Sequence record: MH363708
DNA: 41,775 nucleotides
Origin: Escherichia phage C130_2
Direction: 5' to 3' (one strand)
Every line of letters starts with the position of its first letter. Position 1 is the stretch's first letter. A program made the translations under genes and the position numbers. The notes under the pieces were generated by a model that did not search any database, was not told the origin of the DNA, and saw only the letters and a program-made list of their open reading frames with translations. Shown here one piece after another: positions 5,975 to 17,370 of this stretch.

Positions 5975-6673
5975 ATGCGTATCACAAAGGCAATGCAGGA
6001 AACAATTTTCGAAAACATTATTGCAGACAATCACCCGCTGCGCGTCCGTGCCGATAAGGTGCGCTGGAACGTCGCGCGCATGGTGGCAGATCTGGTGCTG
6101 GAAGCCCGCGCAAAAAATGGGTTTAAATCCGACGCGGAGATCGGCGCGTTAATTGAAGAGGTGAAGGATCTTAATAAGCGCGGCAAAGATTTTTTGAATG
6201 TCTCAAACTCGTTTAATAAATTCCGTCTGGAAGGTGAGGGGGAAGAAAAATATTATTACGATTATAACCTTTATTTCACGGTTGGCGGGCAGAAGCGCGA
6301 AGCCTCTTTCCTCGGTGAGTTGGACAAGGATCACCGTCTGCGCGCCGGTATCATAACCCCAGGCGTTGGGCATGAGGTGGCGCGGCCTTACCTGGGCATG
6401 TTCACACCAACCGGACGGATCAACGTTCCTGCGGATCATTGGGTCATGGCGCGCTTGCAGGAGTTGGAAAGCGAAGTTGCAGCCATTAACGGTGAGCACA
6501 TAACGTTAAAAAGCACCGTCTTTGCAACCCTGAATAAATTCACTACGGTTAAAAAGCTGGTGGCACACTGGCCCGAAGTGGAAAAATACATTCCGAAGGA
6601 TCAGCCGGTAACGGGCACCGGCATTGCGATCAGCGTCGCGGATCTTAATGCGATGTGCGGCATTCCAAAGTAA
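5975..6673 (+). CDS. Hypothetical protein (232 aa)
   Basis: ATG at 5975 with AGGAG RBS; followed by an intrinsic terminator. Confidence 0.6.
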   Translation: MRITKAMQETIFENIIADNHPLRVRADKVRWNVARMVADLVLEARAKNGFKSDAEIGALIEEVKDLNKRGKDFLNVSNSFNKFRLEGEGEEKYYYDYNLYFTVGGQKREASFLGELDKDHRLRAGIITPGVGHEVARPYLGMFTPTGRINVPADHWVMARLQELESEVAAINGEHITLKSTVFATLNKFTTVKKLVAHWPEVEKYIPKDQPVTGTGIAISVADLNAMCGIPK

Positions 6674-8078: not shown

Positions 8079-8092
8079 TGGCCCCTTTTTTT
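8069..8092. terminator. Bidirectional intrinsic terminator between the lysis cassette and the convergent Ig-like gene
   Basis: GGGGCCATGATGGCCCC followed by T7 on the plus strand and a U-rich stretch on the minus strand. Confidence 0.6.
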
Positions 8093-8888
8093 ATGCTGCT
8101 GGGTTAACTGTGACCGTGCAAACGTTGCTGGTAACGGTTTTCGGCGCGTTGTTGTTCGCGCTGGTAACGGTGCAACGGAAGCGCTTGCCGCTGTCGGATT
8201 CCTGCGGGGTGGCAAATGTCAGCGTTGGGCCGGTAGCGCCAGTGATGCCGGACGCGCCCCCGTTCGTTACGTTCGTCCAGGTGGCGCCGTCCGTGGACTG
8301 CTGCCACTGGTACGTGTAAGGCAACAAGCCGTCAGCCGCCACAACCGCCAGGCTTGCTGAGGTGCCAGCCGTCCAGGTTGCAGTCGCTGCAAGGTTCGTG
8401 GTCAGGCGGATCGCAACTTTGGTGCGCTCGCGCAGTGATTCCACGGTTTGCCCTGCGGAGTCGGTAACACGGCAGAAGTAATCACCGTTGTTGCTCGCTG
8501 CATAAGACGGGATGTTATAGGTATTCTGATCCGATCCGATTGGGTTATCAGTCGAAGAAGCGCGGCGAAACCATGCGTAATGATACGGCGGGATCCCGCC
8601 TTCCATTTCCACGGTGAAAGTTTTGTTTGCGCCCAGCGCCAGATAAGTTGCCGTGGCGTCACTGCCGTTATTGCCTGGCAGGTTGGTTGCGAAGGTGAGC
8701 GGGGGCACCTGGTTTGGATCCAGTTCGATATAAAACATACCAGTTGGATCCAGCGTGAGTGCTGCCTCTTGCTCTGCGGTCAGGTAGATAACGGAAAGTT
8801 GCGGAGTCTGCCCGCCGTCCGGCCCCGCAATGCGGGTGACTTTCCAGCCCTTAAGGGCGCGATCAGGGTGTCGGTGCCAAAAGCCCAT
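8091..8888 (-). CDS. Ig-like (I-set type) tandem-domain protein, possible virion decoration or adhesin
   Basis: 265 aa; two repeats with the Ig signature (PYHYAWF...GDYFCRV and PYTYQWQQSTDG..W...DSGKRFRCTV); AGAGG RBS. Confidence 0.55.
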   Translation of the reverse strand: MGFWHRHPDRALKGWKVTRIAGPDGGQTPQLSVIYLTAEQEAALTLDPTGMFYIELDPNQVPPLTFATNLPGNNGSDATATYLALGANKTFTVEMEGGIPPYHYAWFRRASSTDNPIGSDQNTYNIPSYAASNNGDYFCRVTDSAGQTVESLRERTKVAIRLTTNLAATATWTAGTSASLAVVAADGLLPYTYQWQQSTDGATWTNVTNGGASGITGATGPTLTFATPQESDSGKRFRCTVTSANNNAPKTVTSNVCTVTVNPAA

Positions 8889-8975: not shown

Positions 8976-9287
8976 TCATAGTTTACCTGCCTCCCTTAAG
9001 GTCTGGCGTCTGTTATGCACCTGCGCGAACGTCAGCCCCATTTCTTCGGCAATCTGTCGGCTGGTCTTGTCAGCCTTCACACCGGCGATGATCTGCCGGT
9101 CTTCCTCGGTAGTCCACCAGTGGAAAGCGCGGGTGATCGATATCTCAACCCCCAGCGCGCGTGCGCGTCCGTAAACGGATTGGCGCGGGCGTCCAATGTG
9201 CGCCACGATATCTGGCCCAGGCAGGGTGCCCGCATTGTCCAGGATGAATTGATCTTCCTTCGGTGTAAACGGCTTACCGCGTGGCAT
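8976..9287 (-). CDS. Myb/SANT-like helix-turn-helix DNA-binding protein
   Basis: ATG at 9287 with AAGGGGG RBS; WTTEEDRQII and FTPKEDQFIL motifs typical of Myb-like repeats. Confidence 0.45.
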   Translation of the reverse strand: MPRGKPFTPKEDQFILDNAGTLPGPDIVAHIGRPRQSVYGRARALGVEISITRAFHWWTTEEDRQIIAGVKADKTSRQIAEEMGLTFAQVHNRRQTLREAGKL

Positions 9288-9456
9288 TCTGGCCCCCTTC
9301 TGGCTGATCGTCTGCGAAGCGTAGCGCCTTTTGGCGCAACCCATATTTTGCCAGCGCGCGGATCAGATCGGCCCAATCAAAGCGGCTGCGGAAAACCGCT
9401 TCGGGATTGTCGCCGTTAGCCAGGCGCTTTAGCTGCGTGTGCGTGATTCGTTTCAT
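9274..9456 (-). CDS. Hypothetical small protein (60 aa)
   Basis: Internal ATG at 9456 of track ORF 9274-9582 with GAAGG upstream; overlaps the next gene by 14 nt. Confidence 0.3.
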   Translation of the reverse strand: MKRITHTQLKRLANGDNPEAVFRSRFDWADLIRALAKYGLRQKALRFADDQPEGGQNATR

Positions 9457-9710
9457 AGCCCCTTCAACCTTTTTGGATTGCTTTTTGATTTGGCAATTTC
9501 GGTTTTTATGCCTTCTTTGCCCGCCCGTGTTGCAACTGCAATGCGTGTGGTTTTGCGCGGCTTTTCGTTGAGGTATACGCATTCACCATCGTTGATCACG
9601 GCGATATCGGTCACATCAAAGACCGCCGCGATCTTCGCTATATCGTCAGCCATTCCGGCTTGCTTCACCGCTTGCCATACCTCTTGCCGGTTGCCCTGTC
9701 TGAATCGCAT
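9453..9710 (-). CDS. Hypothetical small protein (85 aa)
   Basis: ATG at 9710 preceded by GGAGG 9 nt upstream, but it overlaps 9646-10083 by 65 nt; an alternative start at 9653 gives an 8-nt overlap. Confidence 0.35.
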   Translation of the reverse strand: MRFRQGNRQEVWQAVKQAGMADDIAKIAAVFDVTDIAVINDGECVYLNEKPRKTTRIAVATRAGKEGIKTEIAKSKSNPKRLKGL

Positions 9711-10083
9711 TTAAAAACGCCTCCGCGTGTCGCACTACCTGCGCGCACATATCCGCATCGAATAAGGCAATGTGACAATCAACCTTCTCGATCCCCAACT
9801 GCTTTGCCAGCCAGGCATAAGCAACCGCCCTTTTTTTATACCCGTTGCGCCAGATCGGATCAAAGGCGGCGTGCGCACGGTTGCGGGCCTTTTTGGTCTT
9901 CGCGTCAGCGGTATTGCCCAGCGGGCGATCTGATCGCGGGTGGCAACCAACCGATGCCCCGCACGCGCAGCGATAAGCGAGAATGTGCTCAAGGTCGGGG
10001 CGGTGCGGGTACATCACTTTCCCCGTGGTCAAATAGGCGGTTTTCACACCGCCGCAGATAGCGCAATCAATAGCCTTAGTCAT
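9646..10083 (-). CDS. Zinc-ribbon protein (CxxC...CxC), nin-region-like
   Basis: ATG at 10083 (TAATG overlap with the upstream gene); N-terminal CAICGG...CACGASVGCH cysteine cluster. Confidence 0.5.
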   Translation of the reverse strand: MTKAIDCAICGGVKTAYLTTGKVMYPHRPDLEHILAYRCACGASVGCHPRSDRPLGNTADAKTKKARNRAHAAFDPIWRNGYKKRAVAYAWLAKQLGIEKVDCHIALFDADMCAQVVRHAEAFLNAIQTGQPARGMASGEASRNG

Positions 10084-10319
10084 TAGCAATCCTTGTGATC
10101 ATCCCACGGCCCGAAGCCGCCAACGTAAACAAATTCACGGCCCATGCCGCCGCCGTCCTGCCGGTCATGATAGGCCGCATTCTGGCCCGTTCTCTTCTCC
10201 TGCTTCATTGCCTTGCAGGACTTGGAGCAAAAGCGGCCCCAACCGCGCCGCAGGTCAACGGCGCGCACTTCATGCGGTTTTTTGCACCACTCGCAAGGTT
10301 TAGTGACCATCTTTGCCAT
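10083..10319 (-). CDS. Small C4 zinc-finger protein
   Basis: 78 aa; CEWCKKP...CSKSCK motif. Confidence 0.5.
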   Translation of the reverse strand: MAKMVTKPCEWCKKPHEVRAVDLRRGWGRFCSKSCKAMKQEKRTGQNAAYHDRQDGGGMGREFVYVGGFGPWDDHKDC

Positions 10320-10321
10320 GA

Positions 10322-10636
10322 TTACTGATCCCCCCAGCCGTAAGCGGCTTTTAAATTTTCGTTAGCCTTCTGCATTTGTGCGTGGGCTTCGCGCAGCGTA
10401 TCGCGTTTCACTTCCACTGACGCGGCGTAAAGGCGGGTACGGTTGCGAAGGCTGCAAGCGTTGTCGAAGTTGACGCGCGCCAGCGCCAGCGCCAGTGGAT
10501 TAACCACGCGGAGCGGTTCGGATCCTTCGCGGCTTCCGGTGAATACCAACGCTTTTGCGCGGTAGATCTCGCAGCCCGCAAAGGCTGCTTTCTTGCCCCA
10601 ATGTTTAGCGCGTAATTCCTGGATAGTTGCTTTCAT
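10322..10636 (-). CDS. Hypothetical protein (104 aa)
   Basis: ATG at 10636 with GGGAGG RBS; first gene downstream of promoter-like site C. Confidence 0.5.
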   Translation of the reverse strand: MKATIQELRAKHWGKKAAFAGCEIYRAKALVFTGSREGSEPLRVVNPLALALARVNFDNACSLRNRTRLYAASVEVKRDTLREAHAQMQKANENLKAAYGWGDQ

Positions 10637-10660
10637 CTGTCTGCCTCCCGTGTGGTTGAT

Positions 10661-10710
10661 GGGTTAACTATATATGGTCATTATGCCGGATGTTTAGCAA
10701 AAAGTGCTAT
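10661..10710 (-). promoter_or_regulatory. Promoter-like bipartite element (site C)
   Basis: Minus strand ATAGCACTTTTTGCTAAACA, 18 bp, CATATATAGTTAACCC; the 16-mer CATATATAGTTAACCC is identical to that at site A. Confidence 0.5.
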
Positions 10711-10713
10711 CAA

Positions 10714-10734
10714 CAAAAAACCGCCCGAAGGCGG
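10714..10734 (-). terminator. Intrinsic terminator (UUCG tetraloop hairpin plus U-run)
   Basis: Minus strand CCGCC-TTCG-GGCGG followed by TTTTTTGTTG, directly after the stop of gene 10735-11529. Confidence 0.6.
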
Positions 10735-11529
10735 TTAATATGGCACGTTGGCATTTGAGAGGAAAACGGCTTCGGCAAAGCCTCGCGGCGTCACACTCCT
10801 GATCGCCTTTGTCCTGGCATTCCGGCCCCCTGCGGCGTACCAGCCAGGATTGCAGCGCTTCCCGTTGATCAGCTGTATGGGCACCGGATTTTTTGGAGGC
10901 ATCACGAATGCTTCATTGCACCAAATGCCGGTTTTCTTCGGGTACGCATCGCGCGGCGGGTAGATCGTCGGGTAGATCGGGTGAGCGTCCACCTCTGGCA
11001 GATAGCCGCCATACTCGAACGGGTCGAAGGTGTGATCCGGCCTTCTCCACTGCGTGTTAAGCGTGTTAACTGCCGGATTCTCAAGCATCCACGGGATCTG
11101 CTTGCCGTCGCCGTTCTGCATGTCGCAGTAACCAGCAACCCACATCACCAGCTTTGCCAGCCTGATCGCGTCCTGCTGATCCTGTCGGCGGTTCGGGTAG
11201 TTTGGATGCGGGCGGCGCTCGCTGGTTGGCAAGTGCTTATCATCTGGATGATAGAACCACTTCGCGCCGGTGGTGGTTAGGTACGTGCATTCAGCGAAGC
11301 TGGCGACGAACTCAACGCCAGGGCCAACCATGCTGGCGATCTCCTGCGCTTGATTCACGATATCATGAGCCTTGAACCACATCCCCACGCGAACGATCAG
11401 AGGATTGACCGGATCGCGGTGAATGCCGTCAGGGTGTTTGCCGTCGAATAACCAACATTCATAACCTGCCCCCAACCAGGGGGCGGGCATAATGTCCGAT
11501 TCGTTAAAAAGGAAAATGGCTTTGCGCAT
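10735..11529 (-). CDS. Hypothetical enzyme-like protein (264 aa), function unknown
   Basis: Long ORF coupled to the upstream gene; His/Asp/Cys-rich; contains ENP and a C-terminal PRGFAEAV segment only faintly like C5-methyltransferase motifs. No confident assignment. Confidence 0.5.
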   Translation of the reverse strand: MRKAIFLFNESDIMPAPWLGAGYECWLFDGKHPDGIHRDPVNPLIVRVGMWFKAHDIVNQAQEIASMVGPGVEFVASFAECTYLTTTGAKWFYHPDDKHLPTSERRPHPNYPNRRQDQQDAIRLAKLVMWVAGYCDMQNGDGKQIPWMLENPAVNTLNTQWRRPDHTFDPFEYGGYLPEVDAHPIYPTIYPPRDAYPKKTGIWCNEAFVMPPKNPVPIQLINGKRCNPGWYAAGGRNARTKAIRSVTPRGFAEAVFLSNANVPY

Positions 11530-11533
11530 ATTT

Positions 11534-11746
11534 TTACGCCTGATTTTGCGCGCGGTCTAATTCGCGCTCGGTTGCGGTGATCACCACATAATCATGCTTT
11601 TCCATGCTGGCGAAACGAGCCAAAGCACCATCGCTTAAAAGCTGGAAAATAAAGTGATCGGAAACGCGGCTTGTTGATTCAGCCAGATCGCGCAACTGCT
11701 CAAGCTGGGTGACGGTTAATTGTGATGCGTGGATTGCAAATATCAT
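11534..11746 (-). CDS. Hypothetical small protein (70 aa)
   Basis: ATG at 11746 with AAGGA RBS; overlapping stop-start with the upstream gene. Confidence 0.4.
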   Translation of the reverse strand: MIFAIHASQLTVTQLEQLRDLAESTSRVSDHFIFQLLSDGALARFASMEKHDYVVITATERELDRAQNQA

Positions 11747-11958
11747 TGTGCGTGATCCTTTACTGATTGGCGATATTCCGCAAGGTCTTTGCGGGCCATT
11801 TCGGGCCATGATGAAACCGGTGCAACGCGGTATTCATCGAAATAAGAAGCATCAAGACTTTTTGCAAATTCTTCTGCCTCTGCAACGGTGCTGCATTCGC
11901 CGGAACCGATCAGGAATCCGACGATAAAATAAACCCACTGACGTTGTTTATGATCCAC
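11743..11958 (-). CDS. Hypothetical small membrane-associated protein (71 aa), GTG start
   Basis: GTG at 11958 preceded by AAGGGG; hydrophobic N-terminus WVYFIVGFLIGSG. Confidence 0.4.
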   Translation of the reverse strand: MDHKQRQWVYFIVGFLIGSGECSTVAEAEEFAKSLDASYFDEYRVAPVSSWPEMARKDLAEYRQSVKDHAQ

Positions 11959-11968
11959 TTATAACCCC

Positions 11969-12553
11969 TTAAAGGCGCGCTGGCATTACGGCATATTCAG
12001 CAACGCCGTTGTGCGATTTGATTTCGACAAATGCGGCGGTTGTCGCATCCTGTAAAGTAATTTTTACGATACTTGATTTCATCTGCAATGCCTTGCAAAT
12101 GCGCGTGATTACTGCGAAGTATTCGACGTTGAAGCCGATAACCTTTACACCTTCGCGCTTGCTGTCAACTTCCGTAAACACTCGGCGCAAATCAGGATAA
12201 CGCCCATCAACAAGATCCACGGTGCCCACTGCCACGCGCGCTGCCTTCAAATCAACGTCTTTGAGATCTTCCGGCTTATCGTATGCCAGCGGGAGCCAGT
12301 ACACGATCCCCGCGTCAACGTCGATTGCCGCAGTCTCAATGCCGCGCATGTTCGGCACCTTCGACACTTTCAACAATAAGCCGGTTTCCGGCGCGTTGAT
12401 CAGGTCATGCGTCAGACGAAAGGCGCGGTGCCCGTCCGTTGCCTGGATCTGGTTGCCGATGAAATGCAGGGCGTTAAGGTAATAACGCACATCGTTTTGC
12501 GCCTGGCATAAATGAGCCGCTTTAATGTGCTGCGCTTTTGCAAAAATAATCAT
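11969..12553 (-). CDS. DnaN-like protein: truncated beta sliding clamp homolog (domains II-III only)
   Basis: 194 aa. Blocks NDVRYYLNALHF..ATDGHRAFRL, DLVDGRYPDLRRVF, IGFNVEYF and C-terminal AEYAVMPARL match, as recalled, the E. coli beta-clamp segments QDVRYYLNGMLF..ATDGHRLAV, KLVDGRFPDYRRVLP, IGFNVSYV and AAYVVMPMRL. Has its own AGAGG RBS and ATG, with no domain I upstream. Confidence 0.7.
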   Translation of the reverse strand: MIIFAKAQHIKAAHLCQAQNDVRYYLNALHFIGNQIQATDGHRAFRLTHDLINAPETGLLLKVSKVPNMRGIETAAIDVDAGIVYWLPLAYDKPEDLKDVDLKAARVAVGTVDLVDGRYPDLRRVFTEVDSKREGVKVIGFNVEYFAVITRICKALQMKSSIVKITLQDATTAAFVEIKSHNGVAEYAVMPARL

Positions 12554-12600
12554 AGTCTTTGCCTCTTCTGGTAAAGCCCCATTGCTGGGGCTGTATCGCG

Positions 12601-13329
12601 TTATAAGACGCTTGCGGAAGCGTCCAGCATATCTTGCTTAGTAAGATAATCCGTCTTCACTGGCCCGCGTTTGCGTGGCTTAATCAGGAATAGTGAACTT
12701 GCCTTACTGTTTTTCCGGCCTTCCACTTCGGTTGCCGCATTCACGAATGCTACGCGCCCGTTATGGAATTTTTCTTCGCCTTTGGCGTCGGTGCCGTAAT
12801 AGCCCATGATGTTTACAATCTCGCTGCACGCCTGGATCATGTCATAGAACCATTGCGGCGAGTGGTCATGATTCAGAAGCATAACCGTTGTCACGCCATG
12901 CTGTTTTGCATTTCGTGCTGCTGCTGCAACCCAGGGGATCGGGTCTGCATACGGTGGATTACACCAGACGGTTTCCCCCTCCTTGCCCCATGCCACCTGC
13001 GGATCCAGCGCGTTTTGCTGCTCGTCGATAAACTCAACGCAAAGGGCGTTTCCGGCCTCTGCCGCAACGTCACGCGCGAACGGCCCCCAGCGGTGATCGG
13101 CATAGTTAAACAACCATTTTGGGGTGCGCCATTTCTGCCGGATAGCGTCAGGGGTTTTGCTCTTCGCAAAGCGTCGGCCCGTAATGACCTGATCCACTTC
13201 CTCCGGGGTTGCCGCCAGCGCGCCAGCGCCAGCCGCTTTCAATGCCTCTTCCAGCACCGCTTGCGGGATCGCAAAGTCTGCTGCCACCTGCGCAAGATCA
13301 ACGGTCTTGCTGTCGTTTTCGTCTTTCAT
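12601..13329 (-). CDS. DNA N6-adenine methyltransferase (phage Dam-like)
   Basis: Catalytic motif WCNPPY; ATG at 13329 overlapping the dUTPase stop (TGATG). Confidence 0.8.
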   Translation of the reverse strand: MKDENDSKTVDLAQVAADFAIPQAVLEEALKAAGAGALAATPEEVDQVITGRRFAKSKTPDAIRQKWRTPKWLFNYADHRWGPFARDVAAEAGNALCVEFIDEQQNALDPQVAWGKEGETVWCNPPYADPIPWVAAAARNAKQHGVTTVMLLNHDHSPQWFYDMIQACSEIVNIMGYYGTDAKGEEKFHNGRVAFVNAATEVEGRKNSKASSLFLIKPRKRGPVKTDYLTKQDMLDASASVL

Positions 13330-13781
13330 CACTTCGCCTTTTTATCAGTTGAGCCAAAGCCGTTGGCACCGCGTGCCGTGTCTTTGATCGTTTCCACTTC
13401 CGCGATCTGCCACTGCGGCGCGTCAACGATCATGCCCTGGGCAATAGCCGTGGTTGGGTCAATGGCTGGATATTCGCCGGTAGGGCGATCAGAAACGATT
13501 TTTACTTTCACCTCTCCGGTATAGTCGCTATCGATCACCCCCACGCAATTTGACAAGCGCGCATCCTGCTTGAATCCGTGCCCGCTGCGGCTGTAAATCA
13601 TCAGGGCTTTGCCCTTCGGAATGTCGAATACCAGCCCCGTTGAGAAGATCAGGGCGTTGATTTTTTCGTCGTAACTGCTTTCGATCCCGTAAATGTCGAA
13701 ACATGCTGATCCCTCGGTTGCATATTCTGGCAGACGCGCCAGGGGGTTTAACTTCTTAACGCCTAACACATTTGATCCCAT
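13329..13781 (-). CDS. dut: dUTP diphosphatase (dUTPase)
   Basis: Motifs SRSG, GVIDSDYTGE and C-terminal RGANGFGST characteristic of trimeric dUTPases; GAGG RBS. Confidence 0.85.
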   Translation of the reverse strand: MGSNVLGVKKLNPLARLPEYATEGSACFDIYGIESSYDEKINALIFSTGLVFDIPKGKALMIYSRSGHGFKQDARLSNCVGVIDSDYTGEVKVKIVSDRPTGEYPAIDPTTAIAQGMIVDAPQWQIAEVETIKDTARGANGFGSTDKKAK

Positions 13782-13811
13782 TGTTGGTGCCTCGTTGGTG
13801 AGTGGTGAAAC

Positions 13812-13857
13812 ATACTATATATAAAGACTTTGCAAACGCTTTAGCAATTCGTGCTAT
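13812..13857 (-). promoter_or_regulatory. Promoter-like bipartite element (site D)
   Basis: Minus strand ATAGCACGAATTGCTAAAGC, 18 bp, TATATATAGTATG, upstream of dUTPase. Confidence 0.5.
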
Positions 13858-13939
13858 TCTCTAACTGTCTTTGTTTCCTTCTGCTTTTTTTAGCCAGCCA
13901 GCTAACGCCGCGCCTTCTCCCTTTGGTTGCGGCTTTTTT

Positions 13940-14782
13940 TCAGCTTAACCACGCATTCATTGCCCCTGTGATATCCAGACCGGCGCGCACCCTGCCGCAA
14001 TCCTGGTATAAATAGATCTCGTCCTGATCCAGCGCCACCAATCGCACTTCACGATCACCCCTGTAGCGTGCTGAAACCTCGCGGCAGTTCAGCGGGGTAA
14101 AGCCGATCCATATCTCGCAACCCTTCGCGGGGCCGTCATGCTCTGCCATTGCCACGGCACAAAGGGGATCGCTGATCAGGTAGATTGGCCCGTCTTGCAG
14201 CCCCTTTGCTGGGTGGATCACTGCCACTGCGCCCCAGGTGCGAAGACCTGCCGCAAAGTGTACTGATCGATCAGGGTCTACCCGCGCCAGATTGCAGAAT
14301 TGAAGCGACGCGCCCGACTCGGCAACCTTCCTGCATGGCAGATAGGCTGATCCCTTTCTCCCCCCAGCACGCGCCATGCTCACAACTTTATCGTGCGGGA
14401 TCTCCGCGCTGTTCCTGGTGGTCTTGCTCTTCGATATGGCTTTAGCCTCTCTGGCGACGCTCTCGCGCCGTTCTGGCGTCATGCCCCCCAGCCAATCACC
14501 CAAATCATTGATCGCCTCGTTAAACGGCTGCATACGCGCTTTCATGAACCAATAAAGCCCATCATGCGAGCCGCCGCAGTCGCCGGAACAATACGCGAAA
14601 CCTTCCTCGCGCTTTTGCGGTTTTTTGTGGCCCCAGCGGAAGCGATCAACGCCGCCGCAGATGGGGCAAGATTGGTGGTTGCCGTCAAAGTTTTTGTGCT
14701 GCCAGCCGCACAACTCGATCAACGCCTTTTCCCACTTATCCCGCATTCCTCGCAAAACTGTTTGCTTGTCATGGATTGCCAT
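13940..14782 (-). CDS. Putative DNA primase (zinc-ribbon plus TOPRIM-like)
   Basis: 280 aa; CPICGG...YCSGDCG zinc-binding motif and an acidic LVALDQDE segment; divergent from the helicase gene. Confidence 0.45.
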   Translation of the reverse strand: MAIHDKQTVLRGMRDKWEKALIELCGWQHKNFDGNHQSCPICGGVDRFRWGHKKPQKREEGFAYCSGDCGGSHDGLYWFMKARMQPFNEAINDLGDWLGGMTPERRESVAREAKAISKSKTTRNSAEIPHDKVVSMARAGGRKGSAYLPCRKVAESGASLQFCNLARVDPDRSVHFAAGLRTWGAVAVIHPAKGLQDGPIYLISDPLCAVAMAEHDGPAKGCEIWIGFTPLNCREVSARYRGDREVRLVALDQDEIYLYQDCGRVRAGLDITGAMNAWLS

Positions 14783-14804
14783 TTTTGCCGGTGTCCGTTA
14801 TATT
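14776..14804 (+). promoter_or_regulatory. Sigma70-like promoter for the helicase / recombination operon
   Basis: TTGCCA, 17 bp, TATATT, about 40 nt upstream of ATG 14846 (RBS GGAG). Confidence 0.4.
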
Positions 14805-14845
14805 CATGAATCAGTCAGGTAGAAGAATAACGGAGCAAAAGACAA

Positions 14846-16903
14846 ATGGCAACCGCTGACACGTTAGAAAGCACCTTCGCAGAAAGGTTGATGGAAACGA
14901 TAGAAGACCGGATCGCCCGCACGCCGATTGAAGATCTGATCCGGCAGTTTGGCGATCTGCCGCTGGATCCTTACCCCTATCAGTGGGCCGCTTATGACGC
15001 GGTGGCGCAGTGCATCCGAAAATACCCAGGGCCGGTGATCGTTGAAGCGGCAGTGAGCGCGGGCAAAACGATCATGATCTCCATGCTGGCGCGCCGCATC
15101 ATGCAGTTGCCGTGGGATGATGAAAACCCAGCGAAAAAGCACCGCGCTTGTGTGCTGTCTCGCCAGGCTGAGATCATCGATCAGGATGCGCAGGAATTGT
15201 GGAATTTTCACGTAAACAACTCCATTTTCTGCGCTGGCCTGGGCAACAAAAAATCAACCCATTATCCCATCGTGTGCGGCAGTGAAGGCACGATGGTTAA
15301 CAGTCTGTTTGACAAGCTGGCAGACTTCGCCCCGCTCTTCCTGATCATTGACGAATGCCACCACGTCAACATTGACGATCTGATCGAATCCGAAGAAAGG
15401 ATGGTGCCCGACTACCTCAAAGACGAAAACGGCGCACTTGTTCTGGAAGACGGCGAGCCTGTCCAGATTGGCGAGCACAAAGGCGAGAATTACGAGGAAA
15501 TGATCGCCGCAAAGCGCAACGCTTACACGATCATAATCAGGACTTTGCAGGAGCGGTGCCTTAAGGTTCACGGGTGCCGGTTGCGCGTGATCGGTTACAC
15601 CGGCACCCCTTACCGTGGGGTTGATTCCATCGTCAATGAGGATTACGAAACGCCAGGATTTTGGCGCAAGACGGTGATCCGCATCACGACAAATTACCTG
15701 GTAAAAGTCGGTTCAGTTGTGCCCACTTACTTTGGCGTGTCGTCGCTGGGTTATCAGTTGGATCAGTTCGCCAGCTTCACTGAGTTTGGGGCGAAGGATT
15801 TTAGCAACAACGAAATGATCGCCATGCAGCGGCAGATCCTGAAAGATAAAAAGCTGACCTGGAAGATCATGCAAGAAGTGGTGGAACTCACCAAAGAGCG
15901 CAACGGGGTTTTAGTCACCTGCGCTGGTGTGGCCCACTGCAAAGAGGCCGCAGCGGCCCTGCCGGACGGCATAAGCTATGCGATCATCACGGAAGACACC
16001 GGCCCGAAAAAGCGAATGGAGATCATCGAAGACGCGAAGGCCGGAAAGATAAAATTCATCTTCCAGGTTAACGCCCTTACAACGGGCGTGAATGTGCCCC
16101 TGTGGGATACTTCCGTTATCCTGCGCCGTATTGGGTCACTCACCCTGTTGGTGCAACTGCTGGGCCGTGGGATGCGTATTTTAAAGGATTGGATGATTGA
16201 AGCCGGATTCAAGAAGAGCGATCACCTCGTCCTGGACTATTCGGGCACTATGGCTGCAATGGGCGGGCTGTATGAGGATCCGATCCTTGAAGATTACGTG
16301 TACACCGTGGACAAGGTGAAAGAGGATTGGAAGGAATGCAAATACGGGCACAAAAACGGCAAGCACGCGCGCCGCTGCCGCCACATTCACCCCAACGGCG
16401 AGCGCTGCGATGATTTCTTTGTTTATAAGCTCTGCGAAGACGTCAAAGACCGCAGCACGGGCCGCATCTTGCAGAAGGGCTGCGGGGCCAAAAATGACAC
16501 CGTGGCGCGCCAGTGCCGCTGCTGTGGCAACCTCCTGATCGATCCAAACAAAAACCTATCCGGCGAGCATTACACGGATAAAGATTATTGCGACGTGATC
16601 AGCTTTACGCCGCAGGTTGGCAACGGTGGATCCTTCGCTATTGAGTATCAACTCATGAAGGATGGGATCCAGTTTAAGGCGTGGGAAATTCACTGGCCCA
16701 ACTCCAAAAACCCTGGGGCGAAACAGCTATGGAACCAGTTTTTAAAAGAGCATGTTTTCATGCCGGAGCACCGCGCCACGTTGAAGGCGTGCAAATCTGC
16801 CGAAGCCGTGTTGGCTAACGTATCGTTGATCCTCCCCCCAAAGCGGGTGACGCATCGTAAAATGGGAAGCGGCAAAGATAACGTTTACAAAAAGGTATTT
16901 TGA
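14846..16903 (+). CDS. SF2 DEAD/DEAH-box family helicase with C-terminal zinc-ribbon
   Basis: Walker A AAVSAGKT, Walker B / DEAH-like LIIDECHH, C-terminal Cys clusters (CRHIHPNGERC, CRCCG). Confidence 0.8.
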   Translation: MATADTLESTFAERLMETIEDRIARTPIEDLIRQFGDLPLDPYPYQWAAYDAVAQCIRKYPGPVIVEAAVSAGKTIMISMLARRIMQLPWDDENPAKKHRACVLSRQAEIIDQDAQELWNFHVNNSIFCAGLGNKKSTHYPIVCGSEGTMVNSLFDKLADFAPLFLIIDECHHVNIDDLIESEERMVPDYLKDENGALVLEDGEPVQIGEHKGENYEEMIAAKRNAYTIIIRTLQERCLKVHGCRLRVIGYTGTPYRGVDSIVNEDYETPGFWRKTVIRITTNYLVKVGSVVPTYFGVSSLGYQLDQFASFTEFGAKDFSNNEMIAMQRQILKDKKLTWKIMQEVVELTKERNGVLVTCAGVAHCKEAAAALPDGISYAIITEDTGPKKRMEIIEDAKAGKIKFIFQVNALTTGVNVPLWDTSVILRRIGSLTLLVQLLGRGMRILKDWMIEAGFKKSDHLVLDYSGTMAAMGGLYEDPILEDYVYTVDKVKEDWKECKYGHKNGKHARRCRHIHPNGERCDDFFVYKLCEDVKDRSTGRILQKGCGAKNDTVARQCRCCGNLLIDPNKNLSGEHYTDKDYCDVISFTPQVGNGGSFAIEYQLMKDGIQFKAWEIHWPNSKNPGAKQLWNQFLKEHVFMPEHRATLKACKSAEAVLANVSLILPPKRVTHRKMGSGKDNVYKKVF

Positions 16904-17370
16904 TGAACCGGAAAGAAACAGCGCATTGGATCGAATACTGGACGGAATGGGATGAATCACAATTCCTGCCGTCCGAAGATGCAGACGCGGAAACGTGCTT
17001 CCATTGGGTTACTGAGTTTTTCCCTGATCTGCTGATCTTCCACCCCGTCAACGAGTCTGGCGGGGGCCGGAATCCGCAGTATGAGCAAAAGTTAAACGCA
17101 ATGGGCCGCGTCAAAGGGATCATGGATTATATCTTGCTGGAGCCGTTCGGCCCTTACCCCCACGCGGTGATCGAACTCAAGCGCCGGAACAAGAAGAAAA
17201 GCCGATTGAAGCCGGAGCAAAAAGAGCAACTGGAGCGCGCCCGCAGGAAAGGTGCATTTTGTGCTGTTTGTTGGGGGCCGGATGCTTTCAAGGCTTGCAT
17301 TCATGAATTAATGATGCTTAAATCTGCTCATGTTCACGAAACAATGAAGGGCAAAGACAATGCAGACTGA
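16903..17370 (+). CDS. VRR-NUC domain nuclease
   Basis: TGATG overlap with the helicase stop; PD-(D/E)XK-type motif (IMDYILLEP...AVIELKR) as in VRR-NUC proteins. Confidence 0.55.
   Translation: MNRKETAHWIEYWTEWDESQFLPSEDADAETCFHWVTEFFPDLLIFHPVNESGGGRNPQYEQKLNAMGRVKGIMDYILLEPFGPYPHAVIELKRRNKKKSRLKPEQKEQLERARRKGAFCAVCWGPDAFKACIHELMMLKSAHVHETMKGKDNAD

Follow-up and report, generated by a model that had tools for sequence, protein, structure and literature searches.

A probable compact cytosine-C5 DNA methyltransferase with a degenerate cofactor loop is encoded by the last gene of the leftward operon of Escherichia phage C130_2

The 41,775-nucleotide stretch of Escherichia phage C130_2 DNA analysed here (sequence record MH363708; hereafter the window) comes from a podovirus that resembles Skarpretter and has structural genes of the P22 type. 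Our subject is an open reading frame (ORF) at positions 10735-11529, which an earlier note had described as an unassigned enzyme-like protein that might modify DNA or nucleotides. The ORF was found where that note had placed it, with an ATG start and 264 codons, and lies on the minus strand (a detail omitted from the note), its ATG at 11529 and its stop at 10735. A leftward operon, starting near 14.8 kb from a divergent promoter region, ends with this gene. Its product is probably a small single-domain DNA cytosine-C5 methyltransferase, dependent on S-adenosylmethionine (SAM), belonging to the PHROG 757 family and possessing a fold closest to the DNMT3 catalytic domain. The features of the gene are listed below from the N-terminus of the protein. 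Conservation was counted across 132 diverse family representatives, together with 45 close homologues (alignment A1).

10735-11529, minus strand: coding sequence of the putative compact phage 'Dcm-like' DNA cytosine-C5 methyltransferase (PHROG 757), 264 residues.
11488-11514, minus strand: motif I region, residues 6-14 (FLFNESDIM), degenerate and presumed to form the loop that binds the cofactor; family consensus SLFD-x-TG-x-M.
11443-11445, minus strand: Asp29, which closes strand 2 and is presumed to be the acid of motif II that binds the cofactor ribose; present in 119 of 132 representatives.
11284-11298, minus strand: motif IV, residues 78-82 (FAECT), with the presumed nucleophile Cys81; family consensus FPPCT.
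11182-11256, minus strand: expanded loop after the catalytic cysteine, residues 92-116, FYHPDDKHLPTSERRPHPNYPNRRQ (YHPDDKHLP...YPNRRQ), defined from alignments and an insertion tally.
11074-11082, minus strand: motif VI, residues 150-152 (ENP), with Glu150 corresponding to the glutamate of ENV; the three residues occur in 130, 124 and 131 of 132 representatives, respectively.
10930-10953, minus strand: motif VIII-like segment, residues 193-200 (RDAYPKKT); D194 in 120, Y196 in 128, K198 in 124 and T200 in 120 of 132.
10786-10800, minus strand: motif X-like segment, residues 244-248 (RSVTP; family RS-x-TP); R244 in 121, S245 in 109 and P248 in 121 of 132.

The ORF is a real gene, as evidenced by its G+C content at the three codon positions (0.57/0.45/0.70), by homologues that number in the hundreds (best E 1e-187) and by the synonymous bias of its differences from the copy in Stutzerimonas phage vB_SstS_STP9 (hereafter STP9). 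The two proteins are 98.9% identical, with 14 synonymous and 3 non-synonymous codon differences between the genes; the gene is evolving under purifying selection. The STP9 record (OR754315.1), which matches window positions 9000-17000 at 96.4%, is the closest in GenBank and is flagged UNVERIFIED_ORG. Its host label is doubtful, given that all further relatives of the window have Escherichia, Klebsiella, Kosakonia or other enterobacteria as hosts. The composition of the protein does not bear out the earlier description of it as His/Asp/Cys-rich, since the contents of these residues (3.0%, 5.7% and 1.9%, respectively) are all near average; it is proline (10.6%) and tryptophan (3.4%) that are enriched.

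Comparison with the PHROG profiles gave a match to PHROG 757 ('DNA methyltransferase') with an E-value of 5.2e-58, aligning residues 1-261 with profile positions 14-220 of 247. By this profile match, the protein is assigned as a full-length member of an already recognised phage methyltransferase family, and it fits the family pattern of a single domain of approximately 220-265 residues encoded among phage early or DNA-metabolism genes. A tblastn search located relatives in 1484 phage records, the carriers including Escherichia, Klebsiella and Salmonella phages, Drexlerviridae, Vequintavirinae and RB49-like phages. When a family profile built from alignment A1 was run against 1.84 billion cluster representatives, at least 2110 clusters at 50% identity matched at E≤1e-3, 212 of them at E≤1e-30. 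The labels attached to relatives vary from 'hypothetical protein' through 'DNA methyltransferase' to 'Dcm-like C5 cytosine methyltransferase', with DNA or cytosine methyltransferase given for many of them. In Skarpretter, the syntenic orthologue AZF88637.1 (54% identity, E 1e-93) is labelled 'putative Dcm methylase'.

An AlphaFold2 model of the protein, built on 45 homologues, was obtained with a mean predicted local distance difference test score (pLDDT) of 93.3 and a predicted template modelling score of 0.90. Foldseek, which the earlier note had proposed running on a predicted structure, placed DNMT3A and DNMT3B at the top (E 4e-5), with DNMT3L chains also matched, while the BFVD fold matches were phage DNA-cytosine methylases. 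The nearest structural neighbours of the model are thus C5-cytosine DNA methyltransferases of the class I methyltransferase fold, and no confident match to a non-enzymatic structural family, the outcome that the note had set against its own suggestion, was obtained.

Residues corresponding to the catalytic motifs of these enzymes are strongly conserved. C81, the E150-N151-P152 triplet, K198, R244 and S245 are invariant in the 45 close homologues, and each is present in between 109 and 131 of the representatives. Asp29, also invariant in alignment A1, is presumed to act as the cofactor-ribose acid, by analogy with the motif II glutamate of C5-methyltransferases. In motif IV, C81 is found in 124 of 132 representatives, position 80 is proline in 100, glutamate in 14 and valine in 11, and position 79 is proline in 123 and alanine in 6. 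The third residue of motif VI is proline in the window protein, as opposed to the valine of the canonical Glu-Asn-Val. K198 and its neighbour K199 presumably contact the target base or DNA. At the X-like motif, 'RS' replaces the 'GN' of most C5-methyltransferases; the DNMT3A sequence reads GRSW at motif X. On this sequence resemblance we infer that the R244-S245 segment may be equivalent to HhaI N304 and DNMT3A R891. On the register of motif X, alignment against Dcm and DNMT3A, both local pairwise and by ungapped sliding, yielded only noise.

Two relatives of the protein have been studied experimentally. Escapers of phage K42 (KarlJaspers-like) from retron Ec86 all carried lesions in a 711-bp gene annotated as a 'Dcm-like C5 cytosine methyltransferase', and expression of K42 dcm triggered the retron (bioRxiv 10.1101/2023.08.16.553469). 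In the same study, liquid chromatography coupled to mass spectrometry (LC-MS) revealed that K42 Dcm raised 5-methylcytosine (5mC) in the multicopy single-stranded DNA (msDNA) of the retron, a combined C82A/E128A/K175A/K176A mutant neither triggered the retron nor formed 5mC, and CCTGG mutants of the msDNA abolished retron defence (bioRxiv 10.1101/2023.08.16.553469). Over 257 residues, the protein of KarlJaspers (Bas06) and that of the window share 35% identity (E 1e-45), and K42 residues C82, E128, K175 and K176 align with C81, E150, K198 and K199, all four being conserved. The second relative is gp52 of Pantoea phage AAS23 (35% identity, E 8e-44). No conserved domain was detected in gp52 by BLAST, whilst HHpred matched it with 99.7% probability to the cytosine methyltransferase of solved structure 3ME5_A; from restriction analysis, AAS23 DNA was reported to be both Dam- and Dcm-methylated (PMC8004638). 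Formation of 5mC is therefore supported for relatives at 35% identity, and by analogy the window protein would be expected to form it too. The suggestion of a DNA-modifying enzyme accordingly gains from the PHROG 757 match, the C5-methyltransferase fold, the presence of a catalytic cysteine and of the ENx glutamate, and the K42 and AAS23 data; such an enzyme may also have an anti-restriction role.

The surroundings of the gene are as the earlier note had them. Primase-like, dUTPase, Dam and clamp-like genes and two small ORFs lie upstream of it on the same strand. The leftward operon runs, in order, through the primase-like gene, dUTPase, Dam, the 194-residue clamp-like gene, a 71-residue ORF and a 70-residue ORF to the methyltransferase gene. 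Its main elements are as follows.

13940-14782, minus strand: primase-like gene.
13329-13781, minus strand: dUTPase (PF00692).
12601-13332, minus strand: Dam-type N6-adenine methyltransferase, the operon's other DNA methyltransferase (PF05869, E 1.6e-41; PHROG 111).
11969-12553, minus strand: clamp-like protein of 194 residues.
11534-11746, minus strand: conserved ORF of 70 residues directly upstream of the methyltransferase gene; probable start M22 of a 91-residue ORF.
10719-10736, minus strand: intrinsic terminator overlapping the methyltransferase stop codon; the stem-loop AACCGCC-TTCG-GGCGGTT, in which 5 of the 7 pairs are G-C, precedes a T-run.

The terminator marks the end of the leftward replication and modification operon, and small genes, including one for a DUF3268 zinc-finger protein, lie downstream of the methyltransferase gene. 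At the upstream boundary, the 70-residue ORF overlaps the preceding 71-residue ORF by ATGA and ends 4 nucleotides before the methyltransferase ATG, such that the description of the gene as translationally coupled is approximately right. The 70-residue ORF has no Pfam or PHROG match and is 34% identical to a 78-residue ORF that occupies the same place in Skarpretter (769-1005 of the compared stretch). That Skarpretter ORF carries the label 'putative Dcm methylase', though it is far too small for one.

The 194-residue neighbour, termed DnaN-like in the earlier note, has no Pfam match. Its best PHROG is 3007 (E 4.5e-38), labelled 'RusA-like Holliday junction resolvase', and PHROGs of DNA polymerases and processivity factors match more weakly; in Skarpretter the orthologue is labelled 'beta_clamp superfamily', in conflict with the RusA-like label. 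Elsewhere in the window, a 232-residue protein (5975-6673, plus strand) matches the Pfam domain PF18757, Nmad5 ('nucleotide modification associated domain 5'), over its full length (E 3.4e-29), and is a possible second DNA-modification-related gene of the phage. In Dhillonvirus, nmad5 has been described as a DNA-modification gene in which one mutation stops the Tmn defence from sensing infection (PMC11846954). A 265-residue protein (8091-8888, minus strand), situated between the lysis genes and the early region, contains immunoglobulin-like and SprB-repeat domains, and Skarpretter also possesses a protein annotated with a SprB repeat that resembles it.

The content of restriction sites in the window fits a phage under heavy restriction pressure. 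Of the 56 six-base palindromes that would be expected 6 times or more, 27 do not occur at all, including GAATTC, CTGCAG, CCGCGG, GGTACC and CGATCG. GATC, in comparison, occurs 512 times, where base composition predicts 158 copies and a Markov model 357 (a 3.2-fold enrichment over base composition). An approximately threefold enrichment of GATC was also seen in STP9, Skarpretter and Klebsiella phage JVSB2, and all four phages encode a Dam-type methylase. GGWCC is missing from all four (0 copies), and the palindromes GCGCGC, GGATCC, GATATC and TGATCA are over-represented 3-4.6 times.

CCWGG, the site implied by the name Dcm, is present in the window at normal frequency (136 copies), while CCSGG is almost absent (6 copies in the window and 4 in STP9). 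The loss of CCSGG beside a normal CCWGG count was considered as evidence for CCWGG methylation, on the premise that methylated CCWGG would be the one form of CCNGG blocked to CCNGG-cutting enzymes, and rejected: Skarpretter (194 copies) and JVSB2 (185) carry the same gene family and retain CCSGG at normal frequency. The loss is for this reason lineage-specific and probably reflects a host enzyme that cuts CCSGG. The retention of 136 CCWGG sites amid general avoidance of palindromes is compatible with their protection; it is no proof of protection by the 264-residue enzyme, because host Dcm would act alike.

Taken as a cytosine-C5 methyltransferase, the protein would be expected to work as follows. 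The target cytosine would be flipped out of the helix, whereupon Cys81 would attack C6 as the ENP glutamate, Glu150, protonates N3; the methyl group of SAM would then pass to C5, and beta-elimination would free the enzyme. The N-terminal loop (residues 6-14), together with Asp29 and Arg244-Ser245, would hold the cofactor. Transcription of the gene together with the primase, dUTPase and Dam genes, presumably from the early leftward promoter, would mean that new phage DNA is methylated as it is made and thereby shielded from cytosine-sensitive host restriction enzymes. The predicted specificity is for CCWGG, the likely target, or a related site. Sensing of the mark, or of the enzyme itself, by defences such as retron Ec86/Eco1 and methyl-dependent nucleases would be a side effect. 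Our analysis shows the family membership, the fold and the conservation of the catalytic residues, and we infer the activity, cofactor, target site and anti-restriction benefit of the protein.

A number of observations weigh against this interpretation. At the level of sequence, the protein has no Pfam match at E≤10 and no NCBIfam match, and none of its 45 relatives matches PF00145 at E≤1. 'Unassigned' therefore stands as far as these two collections are concerned, and fails with respect to PHROGs and to the GenBank labels of relatives (DNA or cytosine methyltransferase). Because the PHROG 757 family is invisible to Pfam and NCBIfam, automated pipelines leave its members unassigned or copy the misleading name 'Dcm'. 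Searches of PDB sequences with the single sequence and two family profiles returned nothing significant, the best sensible match being DNMT2 at E 0.24; insignificant as it is, this match falls in the correct motif I-IV register. Likewise, hhalign of the family alignments against E. coli Dcm gave a probability of just 0.7-1.1%, in a non-significant match that nonetheless placed motifs IV (PC/EC) and VI (ENV/ENP) in register. We accordingly rejected the possibility that the protein is a Dcm orthologue; since sequence methods barely detect the link, it is by fold and motifs that it would be classed as a C5-methyltransferase. The name 'Dcm' for PHROG 757 proteins would then be at most functional and not a statement of orthology.

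The motifs themselves also depart from the canon. Motif I of the window protein reads F-N-E-S-D where the family has F-D-x-T-G, such that both canonical glycines are absent, and both prolines before Cys81 are replaced (A-E-C in place of P-P-C). From the experimental literature, K42 Dcm was assigned its CCWGG target on the basis of its name, backed only by the msDNA mutants, and msDNA in MG1655 had little 5mC without the K42 enzyme (bioRxiv 10.1101/2023.08.16.553469). MG1655 carries a dcm gene of its own, and the phage enzyme would therefore differ from host Dcm in substrate or specificity. Host methylation could also have contributed to the CCWGG methylation of AAS23 DNA. Finally, in the BASEL study resistance to restriction was not linked in any simple way to the methyltransferase genes of the phages.

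The departures in motifs I and IV raise the question of whether the protein is catalytically dead, a regulatory, DNMT3L-like protein with a decayed cofactor loop that binds DNA or an enzyme such as Dam. The loop does not have the canonical F-x-G-x-G form. Across the 132 representatives, position 12 is glycine in 95 and aspartate in 5, and position 9 is aspartate in 96; D9 pairs with G12 in the family, while N9 accompanies almost any residue at position 12. The window protein belongs to an N9/non-G12 subclade (55-69% identity) in which position 12 is hypervariable (D, N, P, L, F, R, E or Q). The absence of glycine from FNESD, this hypervariability, the loss of the Pro-Cys proline and the presence of DNMT3L chains among the Foldseek matches would all be in keeping with a non-catalytic role. 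Against this, the subclade strictly keeps D29, C81, E150, N151, P152, D194, Y196, K198, R244 and S245, and the gene is under purifying selection. Moreover, approximately 28% of the family representatives are without G12 and 24% without P80, so neither residue is essential to the family. In the EcoRII methylase, mutation of the proline in the Pro-Cys motif reduces activity and does not abolish it. We consider a dead or purely regulatory protein improbable.

Because all other conserved positions stay invariant, the changes in the subclade are better described as remodelling than as decay. They include, besides the two altered motifs, the expansion of the loop after the catalytic cysteine, which exceeds the loop of Skarpretter and of most family members by approximately 15 residues, is modelled with a pLDDT of 76-90, and within the subclade is conserved, basic and proline-rich. 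The family and its methyltransferase label were known already; the oddity of the window protein is its altered cofactor loop and catalytic motif. There is a small chance that the combination of N9/non-G12, AEC and loop expansion signals a changed function, with a new target or the transfer of a non-methyl group by way of a cofactor made by the host. In that event, the phage DNA would bear a cytosine mark other than plain Dcm-type 5mC.

A specific form of altered chemistry can be envisaged in which the protein is a C5-cytosine alkyltransferase with a non-SAM cofactor, such as host carboxy-SAM (Cx-SAM) yielding 5-carboxymethylcytosine as in CmoX, or with an otherwise altered cofactor preference. 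In CmoX, the arginine that replaces HhaI Asn304 binds the carboxymethyl group, and the phage family has a nearly invariant Arg244-Ser245 in place of the Gly-Asn of canonical enzymes. The cofactor would be supplied by enterobacterial hosts, whose CmoA produces Cx-SAM. SAM-dependent DNMT3A and DNMT3B, however, carry the same 'RS' motif, the equivalence of R244 with HhaI N304 is itself tentative, and the SPPC hallmark of CmoX is absent (FAEC). A search of the window for CmoA, an amide ligase, TET, a hydroxymethylase or another partner gene matched only the unrelated Nmad5-domain protein. The LC-MS assay of K42 targeted 5mC only, leaving room for a further product, but K42 Dcm clearly increased 5mC (bioRxiv 10.1101/2023.08.16.553469). 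Taken together, these points make a non-SAM cofactor distinctly unlikely. The prospect that the substrate is RNA (for example tRNA, as for DNMT2) or a single-stranded nucleic acid and not duplex phage DNA is slimmer still: the insignificant DNMT2 match (E 0.24) and the msDNA stem-loop on which K42 Dcm was demonstrated to act point that way, whereas the structural neighbours are DNA methyltransferases, AAS23 genomic DNA is reported to be Dcm-methylated (PMC8004638) and the gene is transcribed together with those for Dam and replication.

The reading of the protein as a SAM-dependent cytosine-C5 DNA methyltransferase gives a protein otherwise labelled 'hypothetical' a specific name that can be tested. 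On this reading, the phage appears to stack three anti-restriction layers: Dam with threefold GATC enrichment, a cytosine methyltransferase, and the loss of palindromic sites. Given that a member of the family triggers retron Ec86/Eco1, the gene could also be a liability on hosts that bear the retron or methyl-dependent restriction, which bears on phage therapy and host range. In addition, the variant cofactor loop and catalytic motif constitute a natural experiment on which C5-methyltransferase motifs are essential.

Of the known systems, the Skarpretter orthologue AZF88637.1 shares with the window protein its AEC motif and the operon order (primase, dUTPase, Dam, clamp-like gene, small ORFs, methyltransferase). 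It differs in having the FD-x-TG form of motif I and no loop expansion, and a band-7 gene is inserted in its operon. The K42/KarlJaspers Dcm is likewise a small protein (236 residues against 264) encoded by an early or DNA-metabolism gene, and has the same motif X, IRS-x-TPRGFA. KarlJaspers Dcm, however, possesses an FDGSG loop and PPC, where the window protein has FNESD, AEC and approximately 15 extra residues after the cysteine; K42/KarlJaspers is also a siphovirus of the Drexlerviridae, as opposed to a Skarpretter-like P22-type podovirus.

The catalytic domain of DNMT3A and DNMT3B resembles the window protein in its small target-recognition region and in the Arg-Ser of motif X, and F-D at the start of motif I is common to DNMT3A and most of the phage family. 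Identity to these enzymes is 15-16%, with no significance at the sequence level and with ENP in place of ENV, and the window protein has neither their regulatory domains nor a DNMT3L partner. E. coli Dcm and M.EcoRII probably share their chemistry with the window protein and possibly the CCWGG target. At 264 residues, however, the phage protein is approximately half the size of E. coli Dcm (472 residues), and is without the large target-recognition domain and a Vsr partner. Lastly, CmoX (PDB 8yf3) is a canonical PF00145-type enzyme with SPPC in place of the FAEC of the window protein, and is encoded beside CmoA and often an amide ligase, genes that the window lacks. It carries an arginine at the position of HhaI Asn304, a feature that the window protein possibly shares.

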